Notes: generated by a model from the sequence alone, not told the origin. Numbered from the stretch's first letter, positions 3,205-61,770 are shown. The stretch: 64,000 bases of DNA from Gammaproteobacteria bacterium (GCA_016191285.1 JACPPA010000057.1:977-64976); one strand, 5' to 3'. Numbers and translations: made by a program.

Positions 3205-3765
3205 ATGAATACTGAGAAAATCTCCCGTCTGGTGCGCGAACTCCTGATCGAATTAAATGAAGATCCCGAGCGCGAAGGTCTGCAAAAAACTCCGCAGCGA
3301 GTCGCGAAGGCGCTTGAGTTTTTGACTTCGGGCTATCGCACCGATCCGGTCAAATTGATCAACGGCGCGGTGTTCGAGCAGAAGACCAACAGCATGGTCA
3401 TCGTCAAGAACATCGAGGTCTACAGCCTGTGCGAACACCACATGTTGCCGTTCTTCGGACGCTGCCATATCGGTTATTTGCCCAGTGGACGCGTGTTTGG
3501 CGTGAGCAAGCTCGCGCGATTGGTCGATATGTACTCCCGCCGCTTGCAGCTGCAGGAGCGCCTGACCGAGCAGATCTCGCAGGCGCTGATGGACTCGATC
3601 GACGCCACGGGAGTTGGCGTGCTGATTGAGGCCCAGCATCTGTGCATGATGATGCGCGGCGTCGCGAAGCAGAACTCGGTGATGATCACGTCCTCGGTGG
3701 TCGGCACGTTCCGTGATTCGGCCACCACCCGCGAGGAATTCCATGCGTTGATCGGAACGCGCTAG
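3205..3765 (+). CDS. folE: GTP cyclohydrolase I
   Basis: 186 aa; conserved CEHHMLPFFGRCHIGYLP...GVSKLARLVDMYSRRLQLQERLT. Confidence 0.92.
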   Translation: MNTEKISRLVRELLIELNEDPEREGLQKTPQRVAKALEFLTSGYRTDPVKLINGAVFEQKTNSMVIVKNIEVYSLCEHHMLPFFGRCHIGYLPSGRVFGVSKLARLVDMYSRRLQLQERLTEQISQALMDSIDATGVGVLIEAQHLCMMMRGVAKQNSVMITSSVVGTFRDSATTREEFHALIGTR

Positions 3766-6988: not shown

Positions 6989-7547
6989 TTGGCAATCCCT
7001 CGCACCGAGCCGCACCCAATCTTACGACGGGTGCACTGTCCGGCGCCCCGCCGAATAATCGACTGGCGGTTCCGACGATTCCTTCACGCCACTTGCCCGC
7101 CGGAGGAGCGCGAGTGGCTGGAACAGAAATACCCAGGCTGGAACGCGACGTGGGGCAAGGTGTGGGATGAGGCTACGAACAACTTGCTCGCCGGTCGGGA
7201 GGAGCTGACGCTCGCCAATACGCTGCCGTTGATCTGCAACCTGTGTCAGCTGCCGATCGTGCAGACGCCGGGCGAGTCGTGGAAACCCGAGGATCACATG
7301 TTAGTGTACGCGGGGCGGCGCTATTACTTTCAGTCGCATGTCGACAAGTGGGTGTTCCAGCAGAATCCGCGGCGTTACGGTGAGCACAAGTCGCTGGTCG
7401 ATCGCGCGGCGGCCGGCGAAGTGCAGCCGCCGACGTTCGAGGGTGCGCTCAACTACATGGGGCTCGCTCGGCCCTCACGAGCGCGATTACGACGCCAACA
7501 ATTACGCGTGGCTCGAGAGTTTTCGACGCAAGCTGCGCGCGGCCTAA
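6989..7547 (+). pseudogene. Fragment homologous to the C-terminal (YHS-like) ~150 residues of a soluble di-iron monooxygenase alpha subunit; frameshifted near 7455
   Basis: EEREWLEQKYPGW..GKVW, LPLICNLCQLPIV and HMLVYAGRRYYFQSHVDKWVFQQNPRRY parallel the intact alpha (25804-27327) at ERDFDWFEKKYPGW..GKFW, LPTLCRVCHMPGV and RLIDGRKHAFCSAACEHIFREEPHRY; homology continues in frame 0 (PHERDYDANNYAWLESFRRKLRAA* versus PHLDDHRRWTLDDIRALKIE); no N-terminal catalytic domain upstream. Confidence 0.5.
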
Positions 7548-11494: not shown

Positions 11495-12475
11495 ATGCGC
11501 ATCGCACTTTGCAGCCGCGGTTTCACACGGCTCTTCCAAATTCTGACCGAGTACCTACCTGATGATGAACTCATCGAGTGTGTCGACAGTGAAGTGATCG
11601 CCATCGCCAAGGAGGTGGATGTGTTCATTCCGGTGGTGGCGCGGATCCCCGCGGCGGCGTTTGCGGCGCCTCGCCTCAAACTCGTACAGCAATATGGGGT
11701 TGGCCTCGACAGTATCGATATTCCGGCGGCGACGCGCGCCGGGGTGTTGATTGCGAACGTGCCGAGCGTCGGGACCGGCAACGCCGAGTCAGTGGCCGAA
11801 CTCGCCATCGCGCACATGCTGATGCTGTCACGACAGATGCCGACCGCATGGCGCCGGTTTCGTGAGAAGCGCCTTAGTTCGCCACTCGGTAATTGTTTGT
11901 GGCGGAGCACCGTGCTTATTCTCGGCTACGGCGGGATCGGCGAGGAAATCGCGCGCCGCCTGATGGGGTTTGGCGTGCACCTTATCGCGGTGTCGCGTCA
12001 CGGGCCGAGCAGGGCGCGCGATCATGATCCGGCGGTGCACGTCGATTTGCATGTTGGCGCCGAGGCGCTCGGCGAGGTGCTCGGCGAAGCGGATTATGTG
12101 GTCGTCGCGGCGCCGGCGTCGCCGGAAAATATTGGGCTCGTTAGCGCTGCAATGTTCGCGCGGATGAAACCGGGCGCGTACATCGTCAACATCGCGCGAG
12201 GTCCGGTGATCGATTACGACGCACTGCTCGCCGCGCTGCGGGAAGGCCGAGTCGCCGGCGCCGGGCTGGACGTGTTCTGGCAGGAACCCTTCGATCCAGA
12301 CGATCCGCTGCTTAACGAAAACGTGATCGCTACACCTCATGTGGGCGGCGCGACGGAACGCAGCCTGACGGGAATTGGTAAAGCGGTGGCGGCGAACATC
12401 GACCGCATACGTCGCGGTGAATTACCGCTGTGTTGCATCAACCCGGAAGCGGGGCGGAGCAGGCTTCGCGGTTAG
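11495..12475 (+). CDS. D-isomer-specific 2-hydroxyacid dehydrogenase family (NAD-binding)
   Basis: GYGGIGEEIARRL glycine-rich NAD motif; VNIARGPVID...ATPHVGGAT catalytic region. Confidence 0.88.
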   Translation: MRIALCSRGFTRLFQILTEYLPDDELIECVDSEVIAIAKEVDVFIPVVARIPAAAFAAPRLKLVQQYGVGLDSIDIPAATRAGVLIANVPSVGTGNAESVAELAIAHMLMLSRQMPTAWRRFREKRLSSPLGNCLWRSTVLILGYGGIGEEIARRLMGFGVHLIAVSRHGPSRARDHDPAVHVDLHVGAEALGEVLGEADYVVVAAPASPENIGLVSAAMFARMKPGAYIVNIARGPVIDYDALLAALREGRVAGAGLDVFWQEPFDPDDPLLNENVIATPHVGGATERSLTGIGKAVAANIDRIRRGELPLCCINPEAGRSRLRG

Positions 12476-12522
12476 TCAGTGTGCCCGTGCAACGGCCTTC
12501 GAGTAATCATCGCCTTGATTTC

Positions 12523-12586
12523 GTAGGAGCCGCCTTAGCGGCGAATCTTCATCGCGAGATCTATTCGCGGATAAAGCCGGTTCCAC
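12523..12586. repeat. REP-like palindromic element, degenerate copy
   Basis: gtaggagccgccttagcggcgaatcttcat...attcgcggataaagccggttccac; arms pair with mismatches. Confidence 0.6.
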
Positions 12587-12638
12587 AACAGCAATGCGCC
12601 GATTAATCGCTGGGGTTGACGTCGCGTAGCCGCGCATT

Positions 12639-12703
12639 GTGGGAGCCGCTTTAGCGGCGAACAGGACATTCGAAGGAAGATTCGCCGCTAAAGCGGCTCC
12701 CAC
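12639..12703. repeat. REP-like palindromic element, canonical copy
   Basis: gtgggagccgctttagcggcgaac ... attcgccgctaaagcggctcccac; 23-bp perfect inverted arms. Confidence 0.8.
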
Positions 12704-12813
12704 GGTGCGCGATGTTAAGAGCACCATGCACGGTCATTAAAAGCGCCGATTGCCACAACCTCGAGCATCCAGTCAAATAAACGCCCTAAGCAAAATAAGT
12801 AAGGAGTCTTCTC

Positions 12814-18200: not shown

Positions 18201-18410
18201 CTTAAGGAACCTCTGAATAAGTCCATCCTGGACTTATTCAGAGTACGGGAAGCAAAAAGTATGATTTTTGCTTCCCTTCATTTTCGATGGTTTGCAACCA
18301 TCGAAAATGGCGGCGCTTCCCTGTGCCGCGGGAAGCTCTGCCTTTTGCAGAGCTTCCTTAAGCCTTTGTTGACTCGTCACCCCGTGCGACGACACGGGGT
18401 CCAGTGAAAA
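18201..18410. repeat. Composite hairpin cluster: block 18201-18362 bounded by inverted termini cttaagg/ccttaag and containing four perfect hairpins, followed by hairpin 18378-18401
   Basis: Stems ctctgaataagtcca/tggacttattcagag (18211-18243), gggaagcaaaaa/tttttgcttccc (18247-18276), cattttcgatggtt/aaccatcgaaaatg (18278-18309), ggaagctctgc/gcagagcttcc (18331-18357); the last one recurs as a standalone palindrome at 61736-61770. Confidence 0.7.
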
Positions 18411-19018
18411 ATGAATTCTTTATTCGACTGGATTCCTCCGGCCAAAGCCGGGATTTCGCTGGAACGACGGAGGGATTGATTTTCGTGTCTTTCGCGATGA
18501 ATCCGCTTAAGTAAGCGCCATTCGCGTCCGTCCGTTCCTACACCTACACCCAATCCGCGCACAACAGCTCCGCCTTGGTCATCACCGCCGGATTCACGTT
18601 GCGCCTCAGGCGTGCTGTGCCCGCGTGGCAAGCCTCGACCACCGCTGCAAATGGCACAGCGTCAATCACCAGTAGATCTATATCGCTGGACGCTCGCTCG
18701 GGTTCGTCGAGGGACCGAACAACAAGATTCAGAGTGATTCAGCGCCGGGTTTATGGACTGCGAGATGAAGAATACTTGCGACTCAAAATCCTCACCTGCA
18801 TGTTGCCGCCACTCTGAAATCATTGGAATCTACCCACTCGATTACGCGAAGAGCCAACAAACCAGAGCACGCAGCGCTGTTAGCGCAGGCCTCGCCGTGA
18901 GCCAGCTAGTCTGGCTCAGCAGAAAATCGGCGGACGCTACTGAAATGGCTCAATTCAGCGACGGCGGCAACAACCGACGAATCTTGCGACCCGCCTGACG
19001 GAATTGCTCGGGTGCCGC

Positions 19019-21246: not shown

Positions 21247-22197
21247 CTACCGTTGGCCTAATTCCCTCAGGCCCGGTAATGCCATTGGCGGCGGCGCGGG
21301 CTCGTTGACAGTTTGAGCGCCGCGCCGGCTGCGCTGGGCAGGCGTCACTTGTTCACGCCGCCTATGGTTCGGCGCAAAGACGCCGTGGTAACGCGTAAGA
21401 GCCTGCCCCGGACTTGATCCGGGATTGACTCTCGGCGTCGGCACCAGGGCTGCGAGTCGAGCAATGAAGTCGAATGGCTCGAACACCCCGTCCGTCGTGC
21501 CATCCCGGTAAGGGGTCTTGAGGCGGTACCGAACGTGGCCTTGAGTCGTTAACGACAACCGCTCAGTCGAGACTGCCGGGCGTGATATAGCGGCACAGGC
21601 GCTCTAGTTTCTCGCGTTCATGTGCCTCGCTCGTCATCCCGGTGTGTAACGAGAACCCGGCTGCTTTCGCGACCGAATTGTTGTCCTCTACTGCGGCGAC
21701 TGCCGGCAGCGTCTGCAAGGCAAACGCTTTGCGACCCTGGCGCGGGCCGAGCGCAATCCGGTAAGTAACGGAATGACCCAAGAGATCATCGAAGCCCGCG
21801 CCGTCAGGCGAGTCCGCAGTCAAAAAGCTATTCTTCAAGACCCGTACCAGCAGGCATTGGTCTTCGAGTGCGCGGCCAACCCGCTCACTGATGGCGCGAA
21901 TCAATTTAAGTTTTTCCGAGCGAGGGTCGGATGACAGTAGATAAGTCTCCGGCACCCACCGCAAACAATCGAATAATCGAATCTCCGGCACCAGTTACTC
22001 CTGTGCCGCGTGAAGCGCACCGTCTCGTCATTCCGGAAGTCGCGCAGCGACTTCCGGAATCTATCGCCTTGCGGTAGTCGTGTATCAGGGGCGGTCACAA
22101 CTGTTTGTGTGCCGCACTCGTCGCAGAACTTCGCGGCAGGCGAAGTTAGCTCCACAGGCAGCGCCGACGCGATTTTTTTAGCGAACCGCGCGGACAC
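21247..22197 (-). mobile_element. ISCR/IS91-family rolling-circle (HUH Y2) transposase remnant: 5'-degraded and frameshifted between ORFs 21563-21991 and 21247-21558
   Basis: YRIALGPRQGRKAFALQTLP, GFSLHTG, KLERLCRYITP, then in another frame LKTPYRDGTTDGVFEPFDFIARLAALVPTPRVN...LTRYHGVFAPNHRRR. These match ISCR1-type transposase C-terminal half motifs (LEQLCRYITRPA, LKLKTPWRDGTT, FMQRLAALVPRPR, IRFHGVLAPN) as recalled from memory. Confidence 0.65.
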
Positions 22198-33451: not shown

Positions 33452-33510
33452 GGGGCTACTTTAGCAGCGAAATGATCGTGGCTAGGATTCGCCGCCAGAG
33501 CGGCTCCCAC
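33452..33510. repeat. REP-like palindromic element, degenerate copy
   Basis: ggggctactttagcagcgaa ... attcgccgccagagcggctcccac. Confidence 0.55.
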
Positions 33511-33558
33511 AAAAAGGGTCGCCTTTACTTTACTTGACTGTAATCCACACACGATTAA

Positions 33559-36864: not shown

Positions 36865-37127
36865 GGCAAGTGTCCTCCTCTGGTCATGCGCCTGGCATGC
36901 TCCCACGCGCCAGGCGCGCCAGGTTGTGCACTCAAGCTGTTGAAATGGGTACTTCGCATTCGGTGCGAGAGGTCCACGTGGTCAGTGCTGGGCTTAATTT
37001 TTTTGGAGAGCTGCGGCCCATTCGATCTGACGGTGATGCCCCGGCTAGTGTACACCGTACGCGCTTCCAAGCAGCCGCGATCGCACCTGCGGGCGAGCAC
37101 TTGGTTGTCTGCTGGACGAAACAGACT

Positions 37128-37197
37128 GTGGGAGCCGCTTTAGCGGCGAAAGGGGTCTCTACTCTCGATCGGGATTCACCGCTAAAGCGGCTCCCAC
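37128..37197. repeat. REP-like palindromic element, canonical copy
   Basis: gtgggagccgctttagcggcgaaa ... ttcaccgctaaagcggctcccac. Confidence 0.8.
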
Positions 37198-37209
37198 CAA
37201 GATTGAGGT

Positions 37210-38142: not shown

Positions 38143-39081
38143 CTAGACCACCTCAATCCGGTAACCGATCTTCGGGAAATGCACGACCACTTCACCAACG
38201 CGCGGATCATGGCGTAACACCGACACGCTGCGCACGGTGGTGCCCACCAATTCGCCGACCACGTTTACTTCGGCGTAATCACTCGGCGAAACGCACACGT
38301 GAGTGCCCACTTTGATTCCGAGGGGATCGTATTGATCGACCCCAGTGGCTGGATTGGGCGAGGCGGCTCTGGCGATATCGAGCGCAGCGTCGGGAGCCAT
38401 TTCTTTACGGGTTCCCTGGCCGATGGCGACAAGCCGGGCTAACCATTGTGCAATGCGCGGAAAACGATCATAGGCGCGCTGCGCTTCCTTGGGCGCAAAG
38501 CGATACAGAAACCACGGATCCCACATTGCATGCAAATCCGCGAGACCGGGCTTTTCTCCAGTCAAGAATGATCGGCCATCGGCCAATTGCAGATTGATGA
38601 AATCGGTATGCGCATCCAGTTGTGCGCGCAGACCGGGTAGTTTTGGTGCGAGCGAATCCGTGTCAAATTGCGTCTTCCACATTTTTTTGCGGTCCTCGAA
38701 AAAATGCGACGGCAAATCCACCGCACCCGCAAACGGATCTTCGCTGCCCATGTAGAGCGCGACAGAGGTGACCACATACGGCCCATGCGCCCAACTGCCG
38801 AGCGCATAACCCAACCCCGGGTTACCGTCCGGGAAGACTGATGGCTGGGGATGTGCGTGCTCCAGGACCGCCGTAATGAGTTGGGTGTCGCAATAGATGT
38901 CGGCGCCGATCTGTAAGACTGGCGTACGGCGGTACCCGCCGGTCAACGGGACGAGGTGTGGCTTCGGTAGTGCTGCCGGTTGGATGACTGAACGCCAAGT
39001 CAGGTTTTTGATGCCAAAAATCAGACGGATCTTTTCCGCGAACGGGGCCTCATCGTAGTGGTGCAAAATGAGCTCGGCCAT
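38143..39081 (-). CDS. Glutathione S-transferase-like protein (thioredoxin-like N-terminal domain)
   Basis: ATG at 39081 (MAELILHHYDEAPFAEKIRLIF...) with GGAGG SD; GST N-terminal pattern. Confidence 0.65.
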   Translation of the reverse strand: MAELILHHYDEAPFAEKIRLIFGIKNLTWRSVIQPAALPKPHLVPLTGGYRRTPVLQIGADIYCDTQLITAVLEHAHPQPSVFPDGNPGLGYALGSWAHGPYVVTSVALYMGSEDPFAGAVDLPSHFFEDRKKMWKTQFDTDSLAPKLPGLRAQLDAHTDFINLQLADGRSFLTGEKPGLADLHAMWDPWFLYRFAPKEAQRAYDRFPRIAQWLARLVAIGQGTRKEMAPDAALDIARAASPNPATGVDQYDPLGIKVGTHVCVSPSDYAEVNVVGELVGTTVRSVSVLRHDPRVGEVVVHFPKIGYRIEVV

Positions 39082-39267
39082 GGGAACCTCCGCAGCGTGA
39101 TTTGATGTTGTAGGTTCACTCGACTGTAGACGCAAAATGTTCAAAATGGCAGGGTTGCTTCAACCTGCTAACGGCAGCATTACGGAGAACCGCGTCGAGT
39201 ACAATGGCTTCAAAGACGGCGCGATATTAGTGTCGCCCGGCTTCTACAAACTGCGAGCAGTCTGCCC

Positions 39268-40209
39268 ATGACCACTCCCCTTAAAGCTGCCGATCTCAAC
39301 GTGGTGCTGCCAGTGCTGGCGGTGGATCGTGGCTATGATCCGGTTTACGCCAAAGCGGTCGAGATCGCGCCACTTATTCGCCGGGTGCTCGCGCGCAATC
39401 CCAATCACTTCACGTTCCACGGCACCGGCACCTATATCGTCGGCCGCGGCAACGTCGCCGTCATCGACCCCGGACCGTTGATCGATGAACATCTCGACGC
39501 CTTAAAGACCGCGCTTGCCGGCGAAACCGTCACGCACATCCTCGTCACGCACACGCATAACGATCACTCGCCAGCCGCCGCACCCCTCAAGGCGGCGACC
39601 GGCGCTAAGACCTATGGCTATGGCGCGCACGGCGCCGGAAAACGCGAGACGGGTGTGGCGATTGAAGAGGGTGGAGATATGGATTTCCATCCGGATGTGA
39701 CGGTAGGTCATGGCGCGGTAATCGTCGGCGACGGCTGGACCATCGATTGCGTGTACACGCCAGGGCATACGTCTAATCATATGTGTTTCGCATTGCGCGA
39801 AGTACGGGCGCTCTTCGTCGGCGATCATGTGATGGGCTGGTCGACGACGGTAATTGTGCCACCGGATGGTGACATGGCGCAGTATTTTGCGAGCTTGGAG
39901 ATCCTAAAGAACCGTACCGATCATCTTTACTATCCGACCCACGGCAATCCAATCCACACGCCGCAGGCTTTCGTCAGCACGCTCATCGAACATCGGCATG
40001 CGCGTGAACGTCAGATTGCAGCGTGCCTCACACGGGGCCTCTCGCGGATCCCAGATATGGTCGCGGTGATCTATTCTGAAATCGATCAACGCCTGCACGC
40101 CGCCGCCGCGATGTCGGTACTCGCGCATCTCCAGCATATGGTTGCGACCGGCCGCGCTGTCTGCGCCGGCGGGTCGAGCGCTGACACTCACTATCGCCTC
40201 GTGACCTAA
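39268..40209 (+). CDS. MBL-fold metallo-hydrolase
   Basis: HxHxDH motif (THTHNDH) and later His ligands (PGHTSNH). Confidence 0.85.
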
Positions 40210-40223
40210 CGATAATTCACACC

Positions 40224-40562
40224 ATGCTCGACTTCCTACGAACCGCGGCGTTATTTGCGATCACGGCGGTCGCTGAAATCCTCGGCTGCTATCTGCCGTG
40301 GCGCGTCCTGCGCGCCGACGGCGCGCCGTGGTTGCTGCTTCCCGGGGCTTTATCGCTGGCCGCGTTCGCGTGGTTGTTGTCACTGCATCCAAGTGCGGCT
40401 GGCCGGACTTATGCCGCTTACGGTGGCGTGTACATTGGCGTCGCGCTGCTGTGGTTGTGGCGGATCGATCGTATCCGGCCGACGGCGTGGGATGTGGCCG
40501 GCGCGCTGATCGCGTTGAGTGGGATGGCGGTAATTGTGTTGCAACCGAACTTAAGCAAGTAA
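40224..40562 (+). CDS. YnfA-family (UPF0060) small membrane protein
   Basis: 112 aa, four hydrophobic segments, YnfA-like sequence. Confidence 0.75.
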
Positions 40563-40623
40563 CGTCGCGAAAGAGGATTCAACTGTTAACATGAACACGA
40601 ATGCAATCAATCGGGAGGCTCGC

Positions 40624-40908
40624 ATGAGGCAATTAATGTGGACCACGCTGCTAATCGGCATGGCAGCGACGACCTCGGTCGCGGCTGCCCAAATGGAAAC
40701 GCGGTGCAGAATTGACGGCGCGTTTATCAAGGTCTACGGCGATAATGAAAGTGAGCAACGCAAAAACTGCGAACGACAGGGCGGCGTGCTGGCGGAATAT
40801 ATGCCGCACGAAAGCCAACGCCAAGAATTTGGCGAGCGCGAACGACGTGCGGGTTCGCACCCGGGCATGAGTCAGATGCCGGGCGGTGGAGCGATGGGGC
40901 GTTATTGA
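40624..40908 (+). CDS. Hypothetical small secreted protein
   Basis: Signal-peptide-like MRQLMWTTLLIGMAATTSVAAAQ; no recognisable domain. Confidence 0.4.
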   Translation: MRQLMWTTLLIGMAATTSVAAAQMETRCRIDGAFIKVYGDNESEQRKNCERQGGVLAEYMPHESQRQEFGERERRAGSHPGMSQMPGGGAMGRY

Positions 40909-40927
40909 AGCGTAGTGGAGAGCGCGT

Positions 40928-42178
40928 ATGAACCGACCCGACAGCGATATTCGCTATCCCACGGGATTGGCTGACCTCAACGATCTCGATCTATTTTCCG
41001 ACGGCCAGCCGCACGACGTTTTTCGACGACTGCGTGAAGAGGCCCCCGTGTTCTGGAATCCAGAAAAAGAGGGGCCGGGCTACTGGGTGATCACCCGATA
41101 CGACGATATCGTTCAGATTTCCAAGAAGCCGAAAATTTTTTCGAACGCCTTGGGCGGGCACTACATCTCGTATGACTCGATGGGCATCACGGATCCCGAA
41201 GCCCAGAATGCTTTTCTTCACATGCTGCTCGCGATGGATCCGCCCGAGCACAACGTGCATCGGCGGCTGATCGCGCCGGCCTTTAATCCGAATATCGTAC
41301 GCAAGTTCGAGGACGGAGTGCGGAATAAAGTCCGAGAACTGCTTGATCGAATCGCGTCGCGCGGTGAATGCGATTTTGTAACCGAGGTGGCGACGCCGCT
41401 GCCACTGTGGACGTTATCGGAATTACTCGGCGTGCCCGAGGCAGATCGCCAAGACATCATCAAGTGGTCGAACGAAGCGTTGGCGCTGCTCGATCCGGAT
41501 TACTTTGCGTCGCCCGCTGCGGGACAACACGTGTTCGTGAAGATGTTCGATTATGGCAAACGCATCATGGCCTTGCGCCGCGAACACCCGGCCGACGATT
41601 TAACCAGCATCATGGCCAATACCCGCATCGATGGCGAAGGTCTACCGCAGGCCACGCTGGACGGCTTCTTCGTGTTGATGATCTTGGCCGGCAATGAGAC
41701 CACGCGAAACACCATCGCCGGCGGCATGCGCGCGCTGACCGAATTTCCCGAGCAGCGCCGCAAGCTGTGCGCGGATCCGTCGCTTATTCCGAATGCGGTC
41801 GAAGAGATGCTGCGTTACGTCAGCGCCATCATCTACATGCGGCGCACCGCGACCGAAGACACCGAAATTCGCGGGCAGAAAATCGCGAAGAACGATAAGG
41901 TGGTGATGTGGTACGGCGGCGCTAACTTCGATTCTGAGGTCTTCGAAAAACCTTATGAGTTCGATGTCACGCGCAGTAATGCGCGCGAACATCTCGCCTT
42001 TGGCATCGGGCAGCATTTTTGCATTGGCTCGCAAGTGGCGCGCATGCAGGTTCGCATCATGTACGAGGAAATTCTGGCGCGCTTTCCCGACATCCGCGCG
42101 GTTGGCAATTATCGCTATTTACGCTCAAATCACTTGAATGGTTTGAAGTCGATGCCGGTGGTATTTACGCCGGAGTGA
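40928..42178 (+). CDS. Cytochrome P450
   Basis: Heme-binding loop FGIGQHFCIGSQ; EMLR (ExxR) motif; AGNETT I-helix. Confidence 0.9.
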   Translation: MNRPDSDIRYPTGLADLNDLDLFSDGQPHDVFRRLREEAPVFWNPEKEGPGYWVITRYDDIVQISKKPKIFSNALGGHYISYDSMGITDPEAQNAFLHMLLAMDPPEHNVHRRLIAPAFNPNIVRKFEDGVRNKVRELLDRIASRGECDFVTEVATPLPLWTLSELLGVPEADRQDIIKWSNEALALLDPDYFASPAAGQHVFVKMFDYGKRIMALRREHPADDLTSIMANTRIDGEGLPQATLDGFFVLMILAGNETTRNTIAGGMRALTEFPEQRRKLCADPSLIPNAVEEMLRYVSAIIYMRRTATEDTEIRGQKIAKNDKVVMWYGGANFDSEVFEKPYEFDVTRSNAREHLAFGIGQHFCIGSQVARMQVRIMYEEILARFPDIRAVGNYRYLRSNHLNGLKSMPVVFTPE

Positions 42179-42353
42179 ATATTTGGGACAGACGATAATT
42201 TCGCCGGCCGGCAATCGCCGGCCGCTGATTTGCCGCTGAGGCGGCAATCCCCGGCAAAGCATCGCACCTTATCGCGTGCATTACCCCTTCTCCCCTCGCG
42301 GGCTGTCTCTTGTGCACATTTTTGCAGCAGCGACAGCGGCCGCGTGCCAACTG

Positions 42354-42808
42354 CCGTCATGCCGGCGAATGCCGGAATCCAGTACGGTTTCGCGGCGCCT
42401 TCGCGCGTGAAAAAAGCGCTCTACGATTAGCGTGGAGGCTGGACCTTATTGAGCGCACGAACTCGCGTTGGGAAGACCGGTATTCGAGGTTGCTTTAAGG
42501 TCCTCTGGATTCCGGCGTGCGCCGGAATGACGATGGTGGGGTTGCTGCTCTAAGGCCTCTGGATTCCGGCATGCGCCGGCATGACGGTGGTGGGGGCTCT
42601 GAGGCCCTTTGGATACCGGCATTCGCCGGCATGACGGTGGTGGGGGCTCTGAGGTCCTTTGGATTCCGGCATTCGCCGGCATGACGGTGGTGGGGGGACT
42701 CTGAGGTCCTTTGGATTCCGGCGTTCTGGGCCGTGTAACAACTCCAAGTGAATTCGAGCAGGAAACAACAACCCGGCACCCGTCATTCCGGCGCACGCCG
42801 GAATCCAG
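42354..42808. repeat. Tandem array of ~50-bp units (42497-42730, about 4.5 copies), each containing the palindrome ATTCCGGCrTkCGCCGGmAT, bounded by ~30-bp direct repeats carrying the same palindrome (42354-42383 and 42779-42808)
   Basis: ggattccgg recurs at 42507, 42561, 42611, 42661 and 42713 (period 50-54); perfect palindromes attccggcgtgcgccggaat (42508-42527) and attccggcgcacgccggaat (42784-42803); both flanks read cgtcatKccggcgMAYgccggaatccagta. Confidence 0.8.
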
Positions 42809-43067
42809 TAAAAAAAAGCGGATCCGCGCTGCGCGGACGCCTATTCTGACTGGATCCCAGAGTTTCGCTGTGCGAATTCCGGAGTGACGGCGGTTCGAGC
42901 TTTTACACAGCCTCGCAAGCCGGCATGACGAGTGGGCCGCGACAAGGTGCTTCGATGAATAAAGGTGCATAAGAAGAGTCAGCCTTGCGGGTAGGAAATG
43001 GTCTCGCTTCGCAACGTCTGGCACGCGACTTGCGAGGCCAGGTCATCGCAGGGAGATCATCCGCGTC

Positions 43068-43649
43068 ATGGAAATCAATCGGACCGCCTTACCGGTCACG
43101 GGACCCGCGCCAGCAAATGGCGGCGTCATGCACACCCTTAGGTCGATGTTGTTTGGCGACGGTCCGTCGTTTAGCGATGTCCTAGATCTAGTAAATCCGT
43201 TGCAACACATCCCGATTATCGGCTCCCTCTATCGCAAATTGACGGGCGACGTAATCGCGCCGGCGATCCGCGTCGCTGGCGGCGCGTTGTTCGGCGGCCC
43301 ACTCGGCGCCGCGTTATCGTTGGGCAGCATGCTCGTGGAGCCGGCAAGTGCTAAGGAGGGCGCGCCGAGGACGGCAGATCCCGTTGTTGCATTGGCGGAG
43401 GCTTCGAGCGGCCAGCCCTATCGCGGCGGGTGGATTGTGAATGCCGCGATGACCGGCCAGATGTTACCGTTCGCGCCGTCTTCGATCCCGGCCACTGCCG
43501 AGGCCACGAAGAGCCCGGCAAAAATCGCCGAGACCAATCATCCAGAAGTCAGACGCGGCGGCTGGATAGTGGCGCAGGCCTACGCACTCAATGCTGCGGA
43601 GCAAGCGGCGAATGACAAAGTCGCCGGGCAAATCGATGATGCGGTTTGA
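43068..43649 (+). CDS. Hypothetical protein (Ala/Gly-rich, no recognisable domain)
   Basis: 193-aa ORF downstream of the repeat array. Confidence 0.45.
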   Translation: MEINRTALPVTGPAPANGGVMHTLRSMLFGDGPSFSDVLDLVNPLQHIPIIGSLYRKLTGDVIAPAIRVAGGALFGGPLGAALSLGSMLVEPASAKEGAPRTADPVVALAEASSGQPYRGGWIVNAAMTGQMLPFAPSSIPATAEATKSPAKIAETNHPEVRRGGWIVAQAYALNAAEQAANDKVAGQIDDAV

Positions 43650-43790
43650 CGCCTATTAGATTCCAAGTTCGTCCTTCGATGACGATCCGTTCAATCCGTT
43701 TGCGCTAACCCGCCTCGGCTGCGCCGATCACTCCGACCAGCGCGCACCGATTTGATATGCTCCGCCAATAACTAACGCGGAGGTACGCCG

Positions 43791-44981
43791 GTGCATTCGA
43801 TTCTCGGTGGAATTCGGGTGGTGGAAGCGGCGACCTTTGTCGCTGGGCCCGCGGCAGGGACGATCATGGCGGATTTCGGCGCCGATGTGATCCACATCGA
43901 GCCACCAGGAATTGGCGACGCCTACCGCTATTTGTACAAGCTGCGACCGCTGCCGGAATGCGCGGAGAACTACCCGTGGCTCCTCGATTCGCGCAACAAA
44001 AAATCGATCACCCTGAACTTGAAGCGGCCCGCCGGGCGCGCGGCGCTTTATCGACTGCTGGAGACGGCAGACGTCTTTATCACTAACTATCAACCTTCCG
44101 TGCTCAGCGATCTTGGCGTCCGTTTCGAGGATATCGACGGCTTGAGCGCGCGATTGATCTACGCGCATGTCACGGGTTATGGCGACGCGGGCGCCGAAGT
44201 CGAGCGGCCCGGTTACGACGCGACGGCATGGTGGGCGCGCTCTGGCATGATGGACCTCATTCGTCCGCACGGCGGCGAACTCGCGTTGTCGGCGCCCGGC
44301 ATGGGCGATCATCCGACCGCAGTCGCTCTGTTCGGTGCGATCATGCTCGCGCTGTATCGTCGCGAGCGCACCGGCCAGGGCGGAAAGGTGTCGACCTCGC
44401 TGATGGCGAACGGCGTGTGGGCCAATGGCATCCTTGCCCAGGCAGCACTGTGCGGGGCGACGTTCTTCGAACGCGGCACCCACGCTGAATCGCCGAATCC
44501 GTTGATCGCGGTTTATCAGACTCTGGACGAACGCCATTTTTCACTGGTGATGGTGAAAGAGGCGCACGAATGGGATCTCTTCTGTACTGCGATCGCGCGC
44601 CCGGAATTGGGCGCCGATCCGCGTTTCGAGTCGTCGGCCAAACGGCGCGAACACGCGTCGGCGCTGGTCGCGATCCTCGATCAAGTGTTCGCCACTAAGA
44701 CGCTCGCCGAGTGGAGTGCCATCCTGGACCAGCATCGCGTGACCTTCGGGGTCGTGCAGAAGAGTGAGGCCTTGCCGAGCGATGCGCAGATGCTTGCGAA
44801 CGGTGTGTTTCCGGAGATCGTCGATTTGCCGGGCCGGCGGACGGTCGATTCGCCGATTAACGTCGACGGTACCACGAAGATCCCGCCGCAGGCGGCGCCG
44901 GCGCTCGGCGCACATACGCGCGAAGTGCTGCAGAACCTCGGCTATTCAGACGCCGAGATCACGGCGATGGCCGCGGATTAA
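43791..44981 (+). CDS. CoA-transferase family III (CaiB/BaiF) protein
   Basis: Family III N-terminal pattern (GIRVVEAATFVAGPAAGTIMADFGADVIHIEPP) and conserved active-site Asp region. Confidence 0.9.
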   Translation: MHSILGGIRVVEAATFVAGPAAGTIMADFGADVIHIEPPGIGDAYRYLYKLRPLPECAENYPWLLDSRNKKSITLNLKRPAGRAALYRLLETADVFITNYQPSVLSDLGVRFEDIDGLSARLIYAHVTGYGDAGAEVERPGYDATAWWARSGMMDLIRPHGGELALSAPGMGDHPTAVALFGAIMLALYRRERTGQGGKVSTSLMANGVWANGILAQAALCGATFFERGTHAESPNPLIAVYQTLDERHFSLVMVKEAHEWDLFCTAIARPELGADPRFESSAKRREHASALVAILDQVFATKTLAEWSAILDQHRVTFGVVQKSEALPSDAQMLANGVFPEIVDLPGRRTVDSPINVDGTTKIPPQAAPALGAHTREVLQNLGYSDAEITAMAAD

Positions 44982-45043
44982 CGGTGCTGACACCGGCGTT
45001 GCCCGTCAGCGAGACTACGTCTGAGCGAAACTTTGAAGGGACG

Positions 45044-45451
45044 ATGAGCATGGAACCAAACGCGATCGCCACGATTGAAGAATGCGCGAAGCGCTCTCAC
45101 GACGGCAGCATTGATTTTGGCTCAGTGGTCATGAAATTAATGTCGGTTGGTGTCGAGTCCTATCATGCGGACTACCGGCGCGGCGAAACAACCTATTATT
45201 TGCCGAACGGCGACTCTCACGTCGTGGCGTTTCCGACCAGTCACGCCACGATCGCGGAGAATTTCGTTGCCTCAGAGATTCAAGCCGCGGTTCGTGGCGC
45301 ACAAACCGGGACGGTTAAGTACCCCGAGTTTAAAACGCGCACGATGGCGGCGGGTTGCGTTGGCTACTGCGTGTGGATTGTGGGCGGCACTGTCCAGTAT
45401 TTCGGTCGTCGAGGCCAAGTCCATACCGAGCACTTTCCCGGCCAGAACTAG
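45044..45451 (+). CDS. DUF1398 family protein
   Basis: ATG at 45044; pattern ESYHADYRRGETTYYLPNGD typical of DUF1398. Confidence 0.65.
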   Translation: MSMEPNAIATIEECAKRSHDGSIDFGSVVMKLMSVGVESYHADYRRGETTYYLPNGDSHVVAFPTSHATIAENFVASEIQAAVRGAQTGTVKYPEFKTRTMAAGCVGYCVWIVGGTVQYFGRRGQVHTEHFPGQN

Positions 45452-45492
45452 GCAGGCGCCGCCATTAGCGCGAAATTAACGCCGTCGCCAAA

Positions 45493-45945
45493 TTAAATCG
45501 GCTCCAGCAATACCACCGGAATTTCACGCTGCGTCTTGTCCTGATACTGGGTGTACGGAGGATACATCGCCGCCATCTGTTTCCAGATATTGGCGCGCTC
45601 AACACCGCTCGTCACGCGCGCCTTCGCCTTAACGACTTTGTCGGCCACTTGCACAGTGACGACATTCTGCGCGAGCAAATTGTGATACCAGCCGGGATGT
45701 TTCGGCGCGCCACCCTTGGAGGCGACGATCGCGTACGCGCCTTTCACTTCGCCGTAGAGCAAGGGCATGACACTGGACGTGCCGGACTTCGCGCCAACGG
45801 TGGTCAGTAACAAGGTCGGCAAGGGTCCCGGTCCGCCAGCGAACGACGAATCCCATAAATGACCGGCGGCAGGATTCTTAAGATATTGGTCGCGGTGCTG
45901 GGCAATCCAACCCTTGGTGCTCGCTTCGATAATAGGGTCGCTCAT
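45493..45945 (-). CDS. Nitroreductase-family deazaflavin-dependent oxidoreductase-like (DDN/PF04075-like) protein
   Basis: ATG at 45945 with GGAGAA SD; PF04075-like split-barrel pattern. Confidence 0.75.
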   Translation of the reverse strand: MSDPIIEASTKGWIAQHRDQYLKNPAAGHLWDSSFAGGPGPLPTLLLTTVGAKSGTSSVMPLLYGEVKGAYAIVASKGGAPKHPGWYHNLLAQNVVTVQVADKVVKAKARVTSGVERANIWKQMAAMYPPYTQYQDKTQREIPVVLLEPI

Positions 45946-46080
45946 GGGGTTTTCTCCGTGGCTAAAAGGTTGTCCATCGTACACAGGCTGCGCGCGGATT
46001 TCACGGCTTTAGCGAATAAGTATTCGCGCGCGCGCGTTAGAACGGCGCCGCAAAATCGGTTTAACCTATTAGAGGAGCGC

Positions 46081-46617
46081 GTGTCGCGCATCGATGAGTT
46101 GGGCCGCCAAGGGAATTCCGAAATGAGCGTGGAAATCGAACGAGGATACGCGCCGGGTGCGATTGGCCGCATCACCGAACTACATGGGACCTTCTACCAG
46201 CAACACACCGGCTTCGGTCTTTATTTTGAAAGCAAGGTGGCTTGTGAGCTATCGGAGTTTCTCCGCCGTTACGACAGCAACCGGGACGGAATCTGGCTAG
46301 CGCGCACGCACGGCAGTATCGAAGGGTCGCTCGTCATCGACAGTGTCGACGCCGCGACGGCAGGCGCGCACCTGCGCTGGTTTATCGCTTCCGATACCCT
46401 GCGCGGTACCGGCGTTGGCAATCGACTGATGCGTGCGGCACTCGATTTTTGCCGTTTGCGAAATTACATAAAAATTTATTTGTGGACCTTTGAAGGATTG
46501 AACGCTGCGCGTCATCTATACGAGAAATATGGTTTCCGCTTAGTACAACAGCAGCGCGGTAATCAGTGGGGGGCGGAGGTCAATGAACAACGTTTCGAGT
46601 GTCGGCTGGCGCAGTAG
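46081..46617 (+). CDS. GNAT family N-acetyltransferase
   Basis: Acetyl-CoA binding motif RGTGVGNRLM; GTG at 46081 after GAGGAG (alternative ATG at 46123); the longer ORF-track start overlaps the convergent gene. Confidence 0.75.
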   Translation: MSRIDELGRQGNSEMSVEIERGYAPGAIGRITELHGTFYQQHTGFGLYFESKVACELSEFLRRYDSNRDGIWLARTHGSIEGSLVIDSVDAATAGAHLRWFIASDTLRGTGVGNRLMRAALDFCRLRNYIKIYLWTFEGLNAARHLYEKYGFRLVQQQRGNQWGAEVNEQRFECRLAQ

Positions 46618-46928
46618 CACAACCGTGACTTTAAATCGTGTGCCCAAGGTATACGCGATAGATACAATCGCAACTTGTGTGTATTCGTCGTACGGAATGC
46701 CGAGCAGGTCCGCGATGTCTCGCCCATGAACCCAAGTCGTCGTTGCGAGGAGTACAACGACGACTTGCCATGTTTTCATCCACGATCTGGAACGTCGGGG
46801 CATCGCGCCGCTCAAGGGGCTCAGTATTTCCGCTTCTCTATGTAGCGGCTAATCGCGTTCAAACGATTGTCGACCGACCCTGAGTCCGGCTACCTTAGAC
46901 GCTCAATCCAATGCACGGAGCCGCGGTC

Positions 46929-47737: not shown

Positions 47738-47770
47738 GGTGCCGGAGTTTCGCTTATTCGTTTATTCAGG
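47738..47770. repeat. Left inverted repeat of the RAYT element
   Basis: ggtgccggagtttcgcttattcgtttattcagg is the reverse complement of aataaacgaataWRcgaaactccggcacc at 48811-48839. Confidence 0.75.
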
Positions 47771-48695
47771 CAACATTTTGCGCGAAGTGTCGTTCCAATA
47801 AACCGTGCAAGGTCGAGGGGCTGCGCCCGAACAACCGCGCGACTTCTGACAATTGCGCGCTGCGTTCGTCTAGCAGGCGAGCCGCTATCTGGGCTCGGAT
47901 ACGACATAGCTTGCGGCTTCGTGATTGGCTCCGGAGCAACGAAAGACTAACACCCAACTCGACCGCATAGTGCTCTGCCATCGCCGATAGTGTTTCAGAG
48001 GGCGGGCCAGACGCGTTCTCACCCAATGAAAACGAGCCCTGCGAATCGGTGCCCAGAAGTCGTGGGTCGGATGAATTCTCGCCCCGTAGCAGAGTCAACT
48101 CGCTGTCCGGGCCATCGACGCTGAGAAATTTTCGATATGCCCTGCGCGCGTCTCCCAATCGACTTCCGAACAACGCGAGTATTGATTCCGTCGTCAACCA
48201 AGAAACCGCCGTGAGCCCCACATAAGCGCGATGGCTACTCCATGGATAGTCCGTTGGTTCGGCTACCAGACCGGCACGTACTGGGTTGCGATGAATGTAT
48301 CGCACAAGGCTCACGAGATACGCAGTGTCGTTTATCAATATCGCCTTGTAGCGGCGTTCGAACAAATGCCCAGTCGTCAGGAGGTTTCGTTGCACGCGAC
48401 GCGCGTATTGGCTGGCGATGGATTGCATGAAGTGGCCTAACGGCCGCGTACCAACTTGAACTGCGAGGTGAATGTGGTTGCTCATCCAACAATACGCATG
48501 AATATGCGTGTCGTTGGCGCGGATCGCTCGCGCGATTGTCGTCTCGATCAGATCGCGATCAGAGTCGCAGTAAAAGATTTGCTGACGATGATTCCCACGC
48601 AAAATCACGTGATAAATTCCGCCCGCAAGATGAATTCTCGGTCGTCTCGGCATCCTTGCAATCCCAAAGCAGGCCATCCTTGGCCCGGTTGTCAC
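47766..48695 (-). mobile_element. REP-associated tyrosine transposase (RAYT; IS200-like Y1 HUH transposase fused to a DnaA-C-like HTH domain)
   Basis: HUH motif SNHIHLAV; catalytic Tyr region RYIHRNPVRAGL; 309 aa; flanked by inverted repeats at 47738-47770 and 48745-48839. Confidence 0.8.
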
Positions 48696-48744: not shown

Positions 48745-48839
48745 ATAATCGAATAAGCGAAACTCCGGCACCGTCCGGCACCGGCACCGTGCGGCCGTCA
48801 CCGTGCGGCAATAAACGAATATACGAAACTCCGGCACCG
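48745..48839. repeat. Right-side doublet of RAYT flanking repeats
   Basis: ataatcgaataagcgaaactccggcaccg (48745-48773) and ataaacgaatatacgaaactccggcaccg (48811-48839), direct copies ~65 bp apart, both inverted relative to 47738-47770. Confidence 0.75.
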
Positions 48840-52027: not shown

Positions 52028-52099
52028 GTGGGCGCCGGGCGCCGCTTTGAGCTTCGAATTCTGCGGAATTTCCCCATTCGCGGCTAAAGCCGCTCCCAC
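52028..52099. repeat. REP-like palindromic element, variant copy
   Basis: gtgggcgccgggcgccgctttgagcttcgaat ... attcgcggctaaagccgctcccaca. Confidence 0.65.
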
Positions 52100-52160
52100 A
52101 GCAGCAACACGTCGATAGATGAAGGTTCATTACGGGACATCGCACTAGCATTTCTTGGCT

Positions 52161-61349: not shown

Positions 61350-61558
61350 CGGCGTGTCCCCGGCTGGTTGTGTTGAGCGGGATCGTACGCGAAAAGGCTT
61401 AGCCGGGGGCTAACCCACTCGAGACCGCAGAGCGCGCGATCTCGCCGGTGCCCGACATCACGTGCAATTGCCCCTGGTCGAGGATGCCGGCCGCCCGCCG
61501 CCTGCTGCTCGGCATGACGCTTCGGAATCCGATGTTTTAGAATTCTTCCGTTGCTATC

Positions 61559-61620
61559 GTGGGAGCGGCTTTAGCGGCGAATCTTCATTGAACTCCATTC
61601 GCGGCTAAAGCCGCTCCCAC
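61559..61620. repeat. REP-like palindromic element, canonical copy
   Basis: gtgggagcggctttagcggcgaatcttcat ... attcgcggctaaagccgctcccac. Confidence 0.8.
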
Positions 61621-61735
61621 AATGTGGCATTCCACAATGCGGCTTCTACAAACCGCCGCCAGCAGTACGCGAATTATGTAGGTTCGATGCGGGACACCAC
61701 ACGGCCAATTGATTCAAAATAACGCCCAGGCGGTG

Positions 61736-61770
61736 TTAAGGAAGCTCTGCCTTTTGCAGAGCTTCCTTAA
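61736..61770. promoter_or_regulatory. Perfect 15-bp-stem palindrome (ttaaggaagctctgc cttttgcagagcttccttaa) 33 bp upstream of the beta-propeller gene; second copy of the element nested in the 18.2-kb hairpin cluster
   Basis: Exact inverted arms with 5-nt loop; identical core to 18331-18357. Confidence 0.6.

Follow-up and report, generated by a model that had tools for sequence, protein, structure and literature searches.

Background

SsnA is a 94-aa single-domain GIY-YIG protein that acts on the 28-nt repeat NTS (CGTCATTCCCGCGMAVGCGGGAATCYRG), which contains dRS3 (Chenal et al. 2025, Nat Commun 16:2388, PMC11893778). Binding requires NTS in single-stranded form, and cleavage is confined to the forward strand, where the cut falls a few nucleotides upstream; for cutting, the GTC preceding the palindrome is critical, and for binding, the C that directly follows it (PMC11893778). 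According to the same study, ssn genes of this single-domain GIY-YIG class (cd10448) occur across phyla, typically with Ssn-related motifs (SRMs) on both sides in the arrangement SRM-ssn-SRM, and these motifs are captured by the degenerate search sequence HGTCWYN(0-2)YYVSBRHN(0-5)WNVSBRGN(0-2)RNCYNB; binding and cutting were demonstrated for the Neisseria and Wolbachia enzymes only, and mobility of the ssn units was raised as an idea (PMC11893778). NIME, in turn, are dRS3 repeats separated by RS elements of 19-214 bp (Parkhill 2000; Bentley 2007, PMC1797815). Here we analyze a cluster of palindromic repeats at 42354-42808 of a 64,000-nt stretch of DNA from an uncultured gammaproteobacterium (GCA_016191285.1, JACPPA010000057.1:977-64976), the whole of which is called the window below. 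We propose, with a probability of about 0.82, that an SRM-ssn-SRM unit has decayed at this locus and that its Ssn-related hairpin motifs form a NIME-like array.

The connection arose from the array element itself, which resembles the Neisseria dRS3/NIME repeats, and the literature on these led to the description of Ssn and NTS. An earlier reading of the window, made from its sequence only, had offered three options for the array, namely operators for a dimeric regulator, a replication or partition-like iteron set, and a new interspersed repeat family. The family is already known, having been described in 2025 as a repeat involved in genome dynamics, and the array is most probably neither an operator nor an iteron set.

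Results and discussion

The array and its hairpin element

With a period of 50, 4.5 copies, 88% matches and a score of 313 in Tandem Repeats Finder (TRF), the array at 42498-42726 is by far the strongest tandem repeat of the whole window, in agreement with the sequence-only reading, which had described about 4.5 units of approximately 50 bp. Repeat-family analysis of the window places the unit starts at 42502, 42556, 42606 and 42656, with spacings of 54, 50 and 50. The 20-bp palindrome said to be embedded in the units was likewise recovered: allowing for 3 mismatches at most, ATTCCGGC-N4-GCCGGAAT occurs 8 times in the window where 0.72 occurrences would be expected, none of 100 shuffles reached 8, and 6 of the 8 lie at the array locus (42359, 42509, 42563, 42613, 42663 and 42785), the 9-nt arms being perfect in two copies only (42509 and 42785). 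The intergenic placement also held, the array being housed in 889 bp between a P450 gene (40928-42178, PF00067) and an open reading frame (ORF) of 193 aa (43068-43649). This ORF has no Pfam match, and neither do the ORFs crossing the array, which the sequence-only reading had described as repeats of the peptide MPANAGIQ.

The complete element is an oriented sequence of 28 nt with the layout CGTCAT-TCCGGCG-loop-CGCCGGA-ATCCAG, and its canonical copies in the window (CGTCATTCCGGCGCACGCCGGAATCCAG) equal NTS with one compensatory swap of a stem pair, C:G to G:C. The published SRM pattern matches at 42355 (+), 42505 (-), 42559 (-) and 42781 (+); the whole window contains 6 matches, compared to a mean of 0.4 in 100 simulated windows. 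All six full copies at the locus take the form CGTCAT...GGWATCC, with the GTC 5' and the C 3' of the palindrome kept. When folded as single-stranded DNA, the canonical copies form an 8-bp stem with a 4-nt loop (-8.0 kcal/mol, z score around -3.2), and the other four copies form stems of 5-8 bp with energies of -6.4 to -6.9 kcal/mol.

A remnant of an ssn gene within the cluster

Between the leftmost copy of the element (copy A) and the first array copy (B1) lies the 3' third of an ssn gene. An Ssn-like profile of 100 positions was built from 120 small PF01541 proteins, which had been found with a GIY-YIG query sequence; homologs of these Ssn-like proteins carry Pfam PF01541 on record. Against the six-frame ORFs of the window and of 1.7 Mb of fetched loci, the profile gave a single match with E<0.01, an ORF starting from about 42229, whose aligned part (42397-42495) reads AFAREKSALRLAWRLDLIERTNSRWEDRYSRLL, is followed by a stop codon and spans positions 64-98 of the 100 in the profile. 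Taken by itself, the 122-nt spacer has a score of 20.2 bits; in 4000 shuffles 17 was never reached, and the highest score was 9.7 (best of six frames). In a BLASTP comparison the remnant is 41% identical to gonococcal SsnA (E=1e-5), and it retains 11 of the 11 columns of this segment that are invariant in six intact Ssn proteins, including E64, a residue whose mutation abolished cleavage (PMC11893778). Profile, BLASTP and invariant columns together point to 42397-42498 (+) as a 5'-truncated pseudogene of ssn, encoding a GIY-YIG single-strand nuclease, of which the last 33 codons and the stop are left. The stop codon lies 6 nt before B1, with the same geometry as in intact units, and copy A, the remnant and B1 thus line up as a probable SRM-ssn-SRM unit minus about its first 63 codons. 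The window and the retrieved loci L002-L232 were searched by tblastn with GIY-YIG queries, by a regular expression for GIY-YIG and by the profile, and no ssn gene other than this remnant was found.

Association of the CCGGC stem variant with ssn genes

The link between the present stem variant and ssn genes was examined in metagenomes with a gene-blind pattern (ATTCCGGC-N4-GCCGGAATCC, 288-318 nt, GGATTCCGGC-N4-GCCGGAAT), and the matching stretches numbered at least 120. Of the 120 metagenome units listed, 95 have a match to the Ssn-like profile in their longest enclosed ORF, and 111 encode a small GIY-YIG protein in some frame, eleven of them split across frames. Among the few units with both ends placed automatically, the start codon lies 6-30 nt past the upstream SRM and the stop 5-11 nt ahead of the downstream SRM, unless the ORF continues into that SRM. 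One of the enclosed metagenome proteins is 62% identical to gonococcal SsnA, which is encoded by a chromosomal ORF of 94 aa surrounded by 7 canonical NTS copies in 1.47 kb. Furthermore, four independently retrieved ssn loci are hugged by SRMs with the compensatory stem variants CCCGC, CTGGC, CCAGC and ACCCGC. Given that the CCGGC variant encloses GIY-YIG genes and that compensatory stem variants hug other ssn loci, the comparison of sequences indicates that it is a bona fide SRM, a compensatory pair away from the Neisseria NTS and widespread in environmental bacteria and viral contigs. A search of NCBIfam and of PDB sequences with the Ssn-like proteins returned only weak, below-cut-off matches of the GIY-YIG type.

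A further motif, AAGCGCTAACTTA, stands in inverted copies 10-58 nt outside each SRM in approximately 30% of the CCGGC-flanked ssn units (L237-L356), with 30 occurrences on the left, 27 on the right and 20 on both sides among 103 units. The window lacks this motif, which could represent either a preferred target or a terminal repeat at the outer end.

Anatomy and origin of the array

In CGTCAT...CCAG orientation the locus consists of copy A (+), a 122-nt spacer, copies B1-B4 and a truncated fifth copy (-), a 54-nt spacer, copy C (+), a degenerate copy and a half copy. Copy A (42355-42382, +; CGTCATGCCGGCGAATGCCGGAATCCAG) matches the SRM pattern, has a private T-to-G change and folds into a 5-bp stem of -6.4 kcal/mol as single-stranded DNA, its NTS-forward strand being the + strand. 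B1 (42505-42532, -) is a canonical copy found by pattern match, with a stem of 8 bp, a loop of 4 nt and a folding energy of -8.0 kcal/mol (z -3.2). B1 and C (42781-42808, +) are exact reverse complements of each other; C is also canonical and emerges from palindrome scan, SRM pattern match and fold. Copies B2 (42559-42586), B3 (42609-42636) and B4 (42659-42686), all on the - strand, are of the CATGCC variant; they are supported by palindrome scan and fold, together with the SRM pattern match for B2 and the repeat family for B3 and B4. The latter two end in a CCAA tail, and in B3 a second change, A to T in the 3' arm, restores a weak 8-pair fold. Of the fifth copy (42711-42726, -), recognized in the sequence and in repeat family D2, only the half proximal to the CCAA tail is present. 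To the right of C lies a terminator-like hairpin, GTCCGCGCAGCGCGGAT followed by a T-run (42812-42838, -), recognized by consensus match only. A putative degenerate SRM-like copy, CTGGATCCCAGAG...GAATTCCGGAGTGACGG (42850-42890, -), was read from the sequence; it folds weakly and would form an inverted doublet with C. The last piece is a half SRM, GCCGGCATGACG then AGTGGG (42919-42936, -), identical to array copies in 12 of 12 nt (repeat family D4).

The repeats of about 30 bp at 42354-42384 and 42780-42810, which are 90% identical, had been described as direct repeats bounding the array. They are indeed direct relative to each other, but represent the same 28-nt element as the array units in inverted orientation, that is, the array-unit core on the opposite strand (inverted pairs I1-I7, 28-43 nt, 86-93% complementarity). 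Similarly, copies do lie on both sides of the array, but the left one is 122 nt upstream rather than adjacent, and on the right further degenerate copies follow (42850-42890 and 42919-42936).

Each array unit begins with the last approximately 17 nt of the ssn remnant including its stop (GGTTGCTTTAAGGTCCT, which becomes ..GCTCTAAGGCCT and ..GCTCTGAGGYCCT), continues with the SRM and closes with GTGGTGGGG. The end of the remnant (42488-42520) is in register with the later units (repeat family D2). Since each unit is composed of an ssn 3' end, an SRM and 9 nt, the array represents local tandem duplication of one unit end rather than serial independent insertions. The private CATGCC change shared by A and B2-B4 points the same way, to a copy that was amplified or converted locally after it had mutated. 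Array growth could have proceeded by replication slippage or unequal recombination between the hairpin-bearing direct repeats, possibly helped by Ssn nicks. Tandem SRM arrays are also seen at intact ssn genes, as in L345 (3.9 x 44 bp upstream and 5.0 x 42 bp downstream) and L259 (3.5 x 63 bp and 4.4 x 44 bp), and a Dehalococcoidia genome has SRM arrays of 62-64 bp. The locus can be viewed as an ssn unit caught in decay, with the last 33 codons left and the gene 3' end amplified 4.5-fold together with its SRM.

A lineage-specific block

A P450 homolog with 97% identity is present on five contigs from different samples (L227-L231), which appear to represent a sister lineage; the nearest named homolog is from a gammaproteobacterial metagenome-assembled genome. 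The genes neighboring the locus include, besides the P450, those for UPF0060 and a CoA-transferase, among others. BLASTN aligns the longest of the five contigs (L227, 89% nucleotide identity) with 38143-42276 and 43018-43681 of the window, and the intervening 741 bp correspond to 20 bp in L227. This delimits a lineage-specific block (42277-43017) that contains the whole repeat cluster; in all five contigs the distance from the P450 gene to the next gene is 168 bp. Since the sister lineage has the same genes and lacks the whole block, the block is not needed to regulate either the P450 or the downstream gene. This presence and absence at a syntenic site also bears on the question of mobility.

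Two other observations concern the same relatives. L227 encodes a 164-aa rubrerythrin-like protein (12151-12645) between the hypothetical and CoA-transferase genes, which is absent from the window (43650-43790) and is a second indel of the same neighborhood. A more distant relative, L232, with a P450 of 87% identity and no synteny, has two SRMs of another stem variant, CGTCATCCCGGCG-N3-GCCGGGATCC (3647-3674 and 7156-7183).

Distribution of the element

The 26-nt core of the element was scanned for with the exact pattern TGGATTCCGGC-N4-GCCGG-N-ATGAC in the IMG/VR viral contigs and in bacterial and archaeal assemblies with one genome per species, the source genome not being among them. The scan recovered 105 IMG/VR stretches and at least 120 stretches of species-representative genomes. 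Among the matches listed, the hosts include Dehalococcoidia and other Chloroflexota, alpha-, beta-, gamma- and deltaproteobacteria (with Dyella, Sphingomonas, Allosphingosinicella and Devosia), Bacteroidota, Acidimicrobiia, Zixibacteria, Cloacimonadota, Planctomycetota and others. The option of a new interspersed repeat family was thus half right: the family is interspersed, with hundreds of unrelated loci across phyla, but it is not new, being SRM/NTS. Because 123 aligned copies share nothing beyond TGGATTCC...GGAATGAC, the conserved unit is approximately 26-28 nt long. Of 92 copy pairs less than 400 bp apart, 74 have outward-GTCAT polarity (GTCAT..CCAG, 12-90 nt, CTGG..ATGAC), which is the orientation found around ssn genes.

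Clustering of the ORFs at 225 loci (including the 120 listed genome loci) revealed no recurrent transposase or nuclease beside the motif; what does recur are phage structural genes, in viral contigs, and common gene families, among them SDR, ABC-F and sensor kinases. The 105 IMG/VR stretches with the SRM 26-mer (L002-L106) yielded no ssn gene, and gapped patterns for SRM plus gene start and for SRM-gene-SRM had 0 matches in viral contigs. In other genomes, no ssn remnants were detected in the spacers of 74 gene-less inverted doublets, so the notion that doublets are decayed ssn units is unsupported as a general rule. A 52-nt similarity to the viral contig L093 was considered and dropped, as it amounts to an SRM with a short G/T-rich flank.

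Two individual contigs deserve mention. The 39-kb viral contig 3300050015_000339 (L005/L038/L069) holds at least 9 copies of the SRM 26-mer. The 3.8-kb contig JAIVTC010000274.1 (L191), binned as Bathyarchaeota, has 3 SRM copies, which are either real or a binning error.

Within the window, SRM pattern match and inspection of the sequence identified another inverted doublet of SRM type at 18375-18470, which is unrelated to the first and differs from it in the stem. It consists of CGTCACCCCGTG...CACGGGGTCCAG (CGTCACCCCGTGCGACGACACGGGGTCCAG), 23 nt, and a degenerate CTGGATTCC...GGAACGACGG, and places the SRM family at more than one site in this genome.

Proposed mechanism and possible mobility

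Extrapolating from the characterized enzymes (PMC11893778), each SRM would fold into a hairpin when its strand is exposed as single-stranded DNA in replication, transformation or conjugation. A cognate Ssn would bind this hairpin and the C that directly follows it, and would cleave only the forward strand, a few nucleotides ahead of CGTCAT. At the present locus the forward strand is the + strand in copies A and C and the - strand in B1-B4. Cleavage of this kind would restrict or alter how incoming DNA recombines at the site. Because the local ssn is dead and four copies have a stem-weakening change, any present activity would depend on an intact ssn elsewhere in the genome, and the array may be largely a fossil.

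Ssn units from elsewhere are 91-95% identical in unrelated flanks (L266/L274, L274/L341 and L274/L353), with the homology ending exactly at the outer GTCAT/ATGAC. Such near-identical units, together with the presence and absence of the block and the gene-less doublets of the same polarity that are common in many genomes, are compatible with mobility of the unit. As a tentative extension, for which the odds are distinctly against, SRM-ssn-SRM could move autonomously, with a GIY-YIG single-strand nuclease as the driving enzyme, and so be the counterpart of RAYT/REPIN; the present locus would then be an insertion footprint that later underwent gene decay and end amplification. If so, the end arrays beside the intact genes of L345 and L259 would be by-products of strand-specific cutting during replication.

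Weighing of the readings

A number of observations count against a decayed SRM-ssn-SRM unit with its array. B3 and B4, two of the six full copies, miss the strict SRM pattern, at their CCAA tail only. Four of the six full copies (A and B2-B4) have the private T-to-G change (CATGCC), which leaves three of these copies with a stem of 5 bp in place of 8 bp and is found in 0 of 123 copies from elsewhere. Activity on the CCGGC variant would need a matched Ssn, given that altering the palindrome sequence with the hairpin kept abolished cutting by the meningococcal enzyme (PMC11893778). The profile search found no intact ssn in the 64-kb window, and the SRM loci seen there number just two (at 42.3-42.9 kb and at 18.4 kb), which does not establish a high copy number for this genome. 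No SRMs are present in about 21 kb of sister-lineage contigs, and the borders of the block show neither a target duplication nor a clean insertion junction. Finally, tandem arrays beside ssn are rare, occurring in 4 of the 120 metagenome units listed. A rival reading is that of a pure fossil, a neutral wreck of a former ssn unit with no Ssn enzyme left in the genome and no present activity of the array, which persists by drift and slippage. That the local ssn is down to 33 codons, that four of seven copies share the private stem-weakening change, that the copies on the right side are degenerate or halved, and that the window lacks an intact ssn while the sister lineage does without the block all favor such a fossil. 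Against it, B1 and C have stayed perfect and do not differ at any of their 28 nt, the second SRM doublet 24 kb away suggests that the family is active now or was so recently, and ssn, normally a single-copy gene, could lie anywhere outside the window. We regard the pure fossil as a serious contender with somewhat less than an even chance.

The remaining explanations fare less well than a decayed unit of the SRM-ssn-SRM type. The hairpins could act mainly in RNA, as attenuators or mRNA stabilizers between co-oriented genes like some REPs of E. coli, and the cluster does lie between genes of the same strand, while the block contains a hairpin and T-run resembling a terminator, albeit on the other strand; this seems unlikely, as the SRM hairpins lack U-tracts, no Rfam family is matched at gathering score or E<=1, Ssn has no action on RNA (PMC11893778), and the sister lineage has no such element at the site. 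That the number of tandem units is an assembly artefact is less likely still. An independent short-read assembly (Logan SRR12113392), evidently of the window's own strain, is 100% identical to 39816-42328 and 42870-46649, in one 2.5-kb and one 18.9-kb contig from a single run, and breaks on both sides of the cluster without bridging it; nevertheless, it confirms unique parts of the block on both sides, and the units are individually distinguishable by substitutions and indels (periods 54, 50, 50 and 52; 80-92% identity to the reference unit). Short extragenic palindromes in inverted doublets and clusters with wide dispersal would also describe an ordinary REP/BIME (REPIN) family that owes its spread to a RAYT (Y1, IS200/IS605-like) transposase. 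Across bacteria the element does resemble a REP/BIME-type element in many random intergenic contexts, an outcome that the sequence-only reading had named as speaking against its own proposals, with two loci in these 64 kb; however, the enclosed gene encodes a GIY-YIG protein and not a Y1 transposase in 111 of 120 units listed, no recurrent transposase accompanies the copies in the 120 listed genome loci, and the REP family that the window does contain is a different one, headed by GTGG, all of which makes this origin very improbable. Even less credence can be given to an operator array for a dimeric regulator of the P450 or downstream gene, or to iteron or partition sites. Regularly spaced palindromes upstream of a gene are what such arrays would provide, but the element is asymmetric and oriented, the same 26-mer occurs in hundreds of unrelated contexts in many phyla, and the orthologous loci on five contigs with the same genes lack it. 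Moreover, the adjacent genes include no regulator, a stretch of about 4 kb around the cluster is free of rep, par and regulator genes, there is no promoter-like site in 42100-43150, and the chromosomal context is metabolic, the cluster having no BLASTN match in plasmid and phage collections. CRISPR was considered and rejected, since the spacers are near-identical (88% matches across whole units) and cas genes are lacking. For annotation, a candidate new regulatory or iteron array is thereby removed, and the palindrome, the MPANAGIQ-type ORFs and the array are all explained by Ssn-related repeats.

Other repeats in the window

The window harbors a separate REP family, GTGGGAGCSGCTTTAGCSGCGAA, at 12522-12704, 33485-33511, 37127-37198, 52074-52100 and 61558-61621, mostly as inverted doublets 14-24 nt apart. 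Its organization is classic REP/REPIN-like, and it is unrelated to the array element, just as the sequence-only reading had maintained. A 31-nt hairpin, GGAAGCTCTGCCTTTTGCAGAGCTTCCTTAA, is present in two 100% identical copies, one beside the second SRM doublet (18331-18361) and one beside a REP doublet (61740-61770). Inverted repeats of 28-29 nt with 93-96% complementarity at 47738-47766, 48745-48772 and 48810-48838 (also 21965-21993) bracket an ORF of 309 aa on the - strand (47766-48695), which looks like an insertion sequence or an element of the miniature inverted-repeat transposable element (MITE) type.

Comparison with known systems

Of the described systems, CRISPR shares with the array a regularly spaced partial palindrome of about 28 nt, but here the spacers are 22-26 nt long and nearly identical, the copies occur in both orientations, and there are neither cas genes nor a leader. 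The REP/BIME/REPIN-RAYT systems also comprise short extragenic palindromes that act as single-strand hairpins, are grouped in clusters and inverted doublets, and go with a single-copy gene that sits between two copies; they differ in their enzyme, a Y1 (HUH) transposase rather than a GIY-YIG nuclease, and in their head, GTAG rather than GTCAT. NIME resemble the locus in their 20-bp ATTCC-N-GGAAT palindromes with short spacers (22-122 nt here), intergenic position, mixed orientation and variation in length between relatives. However, the dRS3 consensus ATTCCCNNNNNNNNGGGAAT (ATTCCC-N8-GGGAAT) does not fit the present palindrome, in which positions 6 and 15 are G/C and not C/G, the host is not a Neisseria, and the spacers are near-identical, which indicates recent tandem duplication, whereas typical NIMEs are mosaics of different RS families.

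The closest counterpart is the SRM/NTS-SsnA system. Both have an oriented, intergenic and clustered 28-nt hairpin with a CGTCAT head and an ATCCAG tail that matches the SRM pattern; in both, inverted copies hug a GIY-YIG gene of about 95 aa, and the local remnant is homologous to the C-terminus of SsnA. The differences are that the stem is CCGGCG/CGCCGG here and CCCGCG/CGCGGG in the Neisseria NTS, that the host is of an uncultured, probably gammaproteobacterial lineage, and that in this locus ssn is truncated, with the SRM and the 3' end of the gene amplified 4.5 times.

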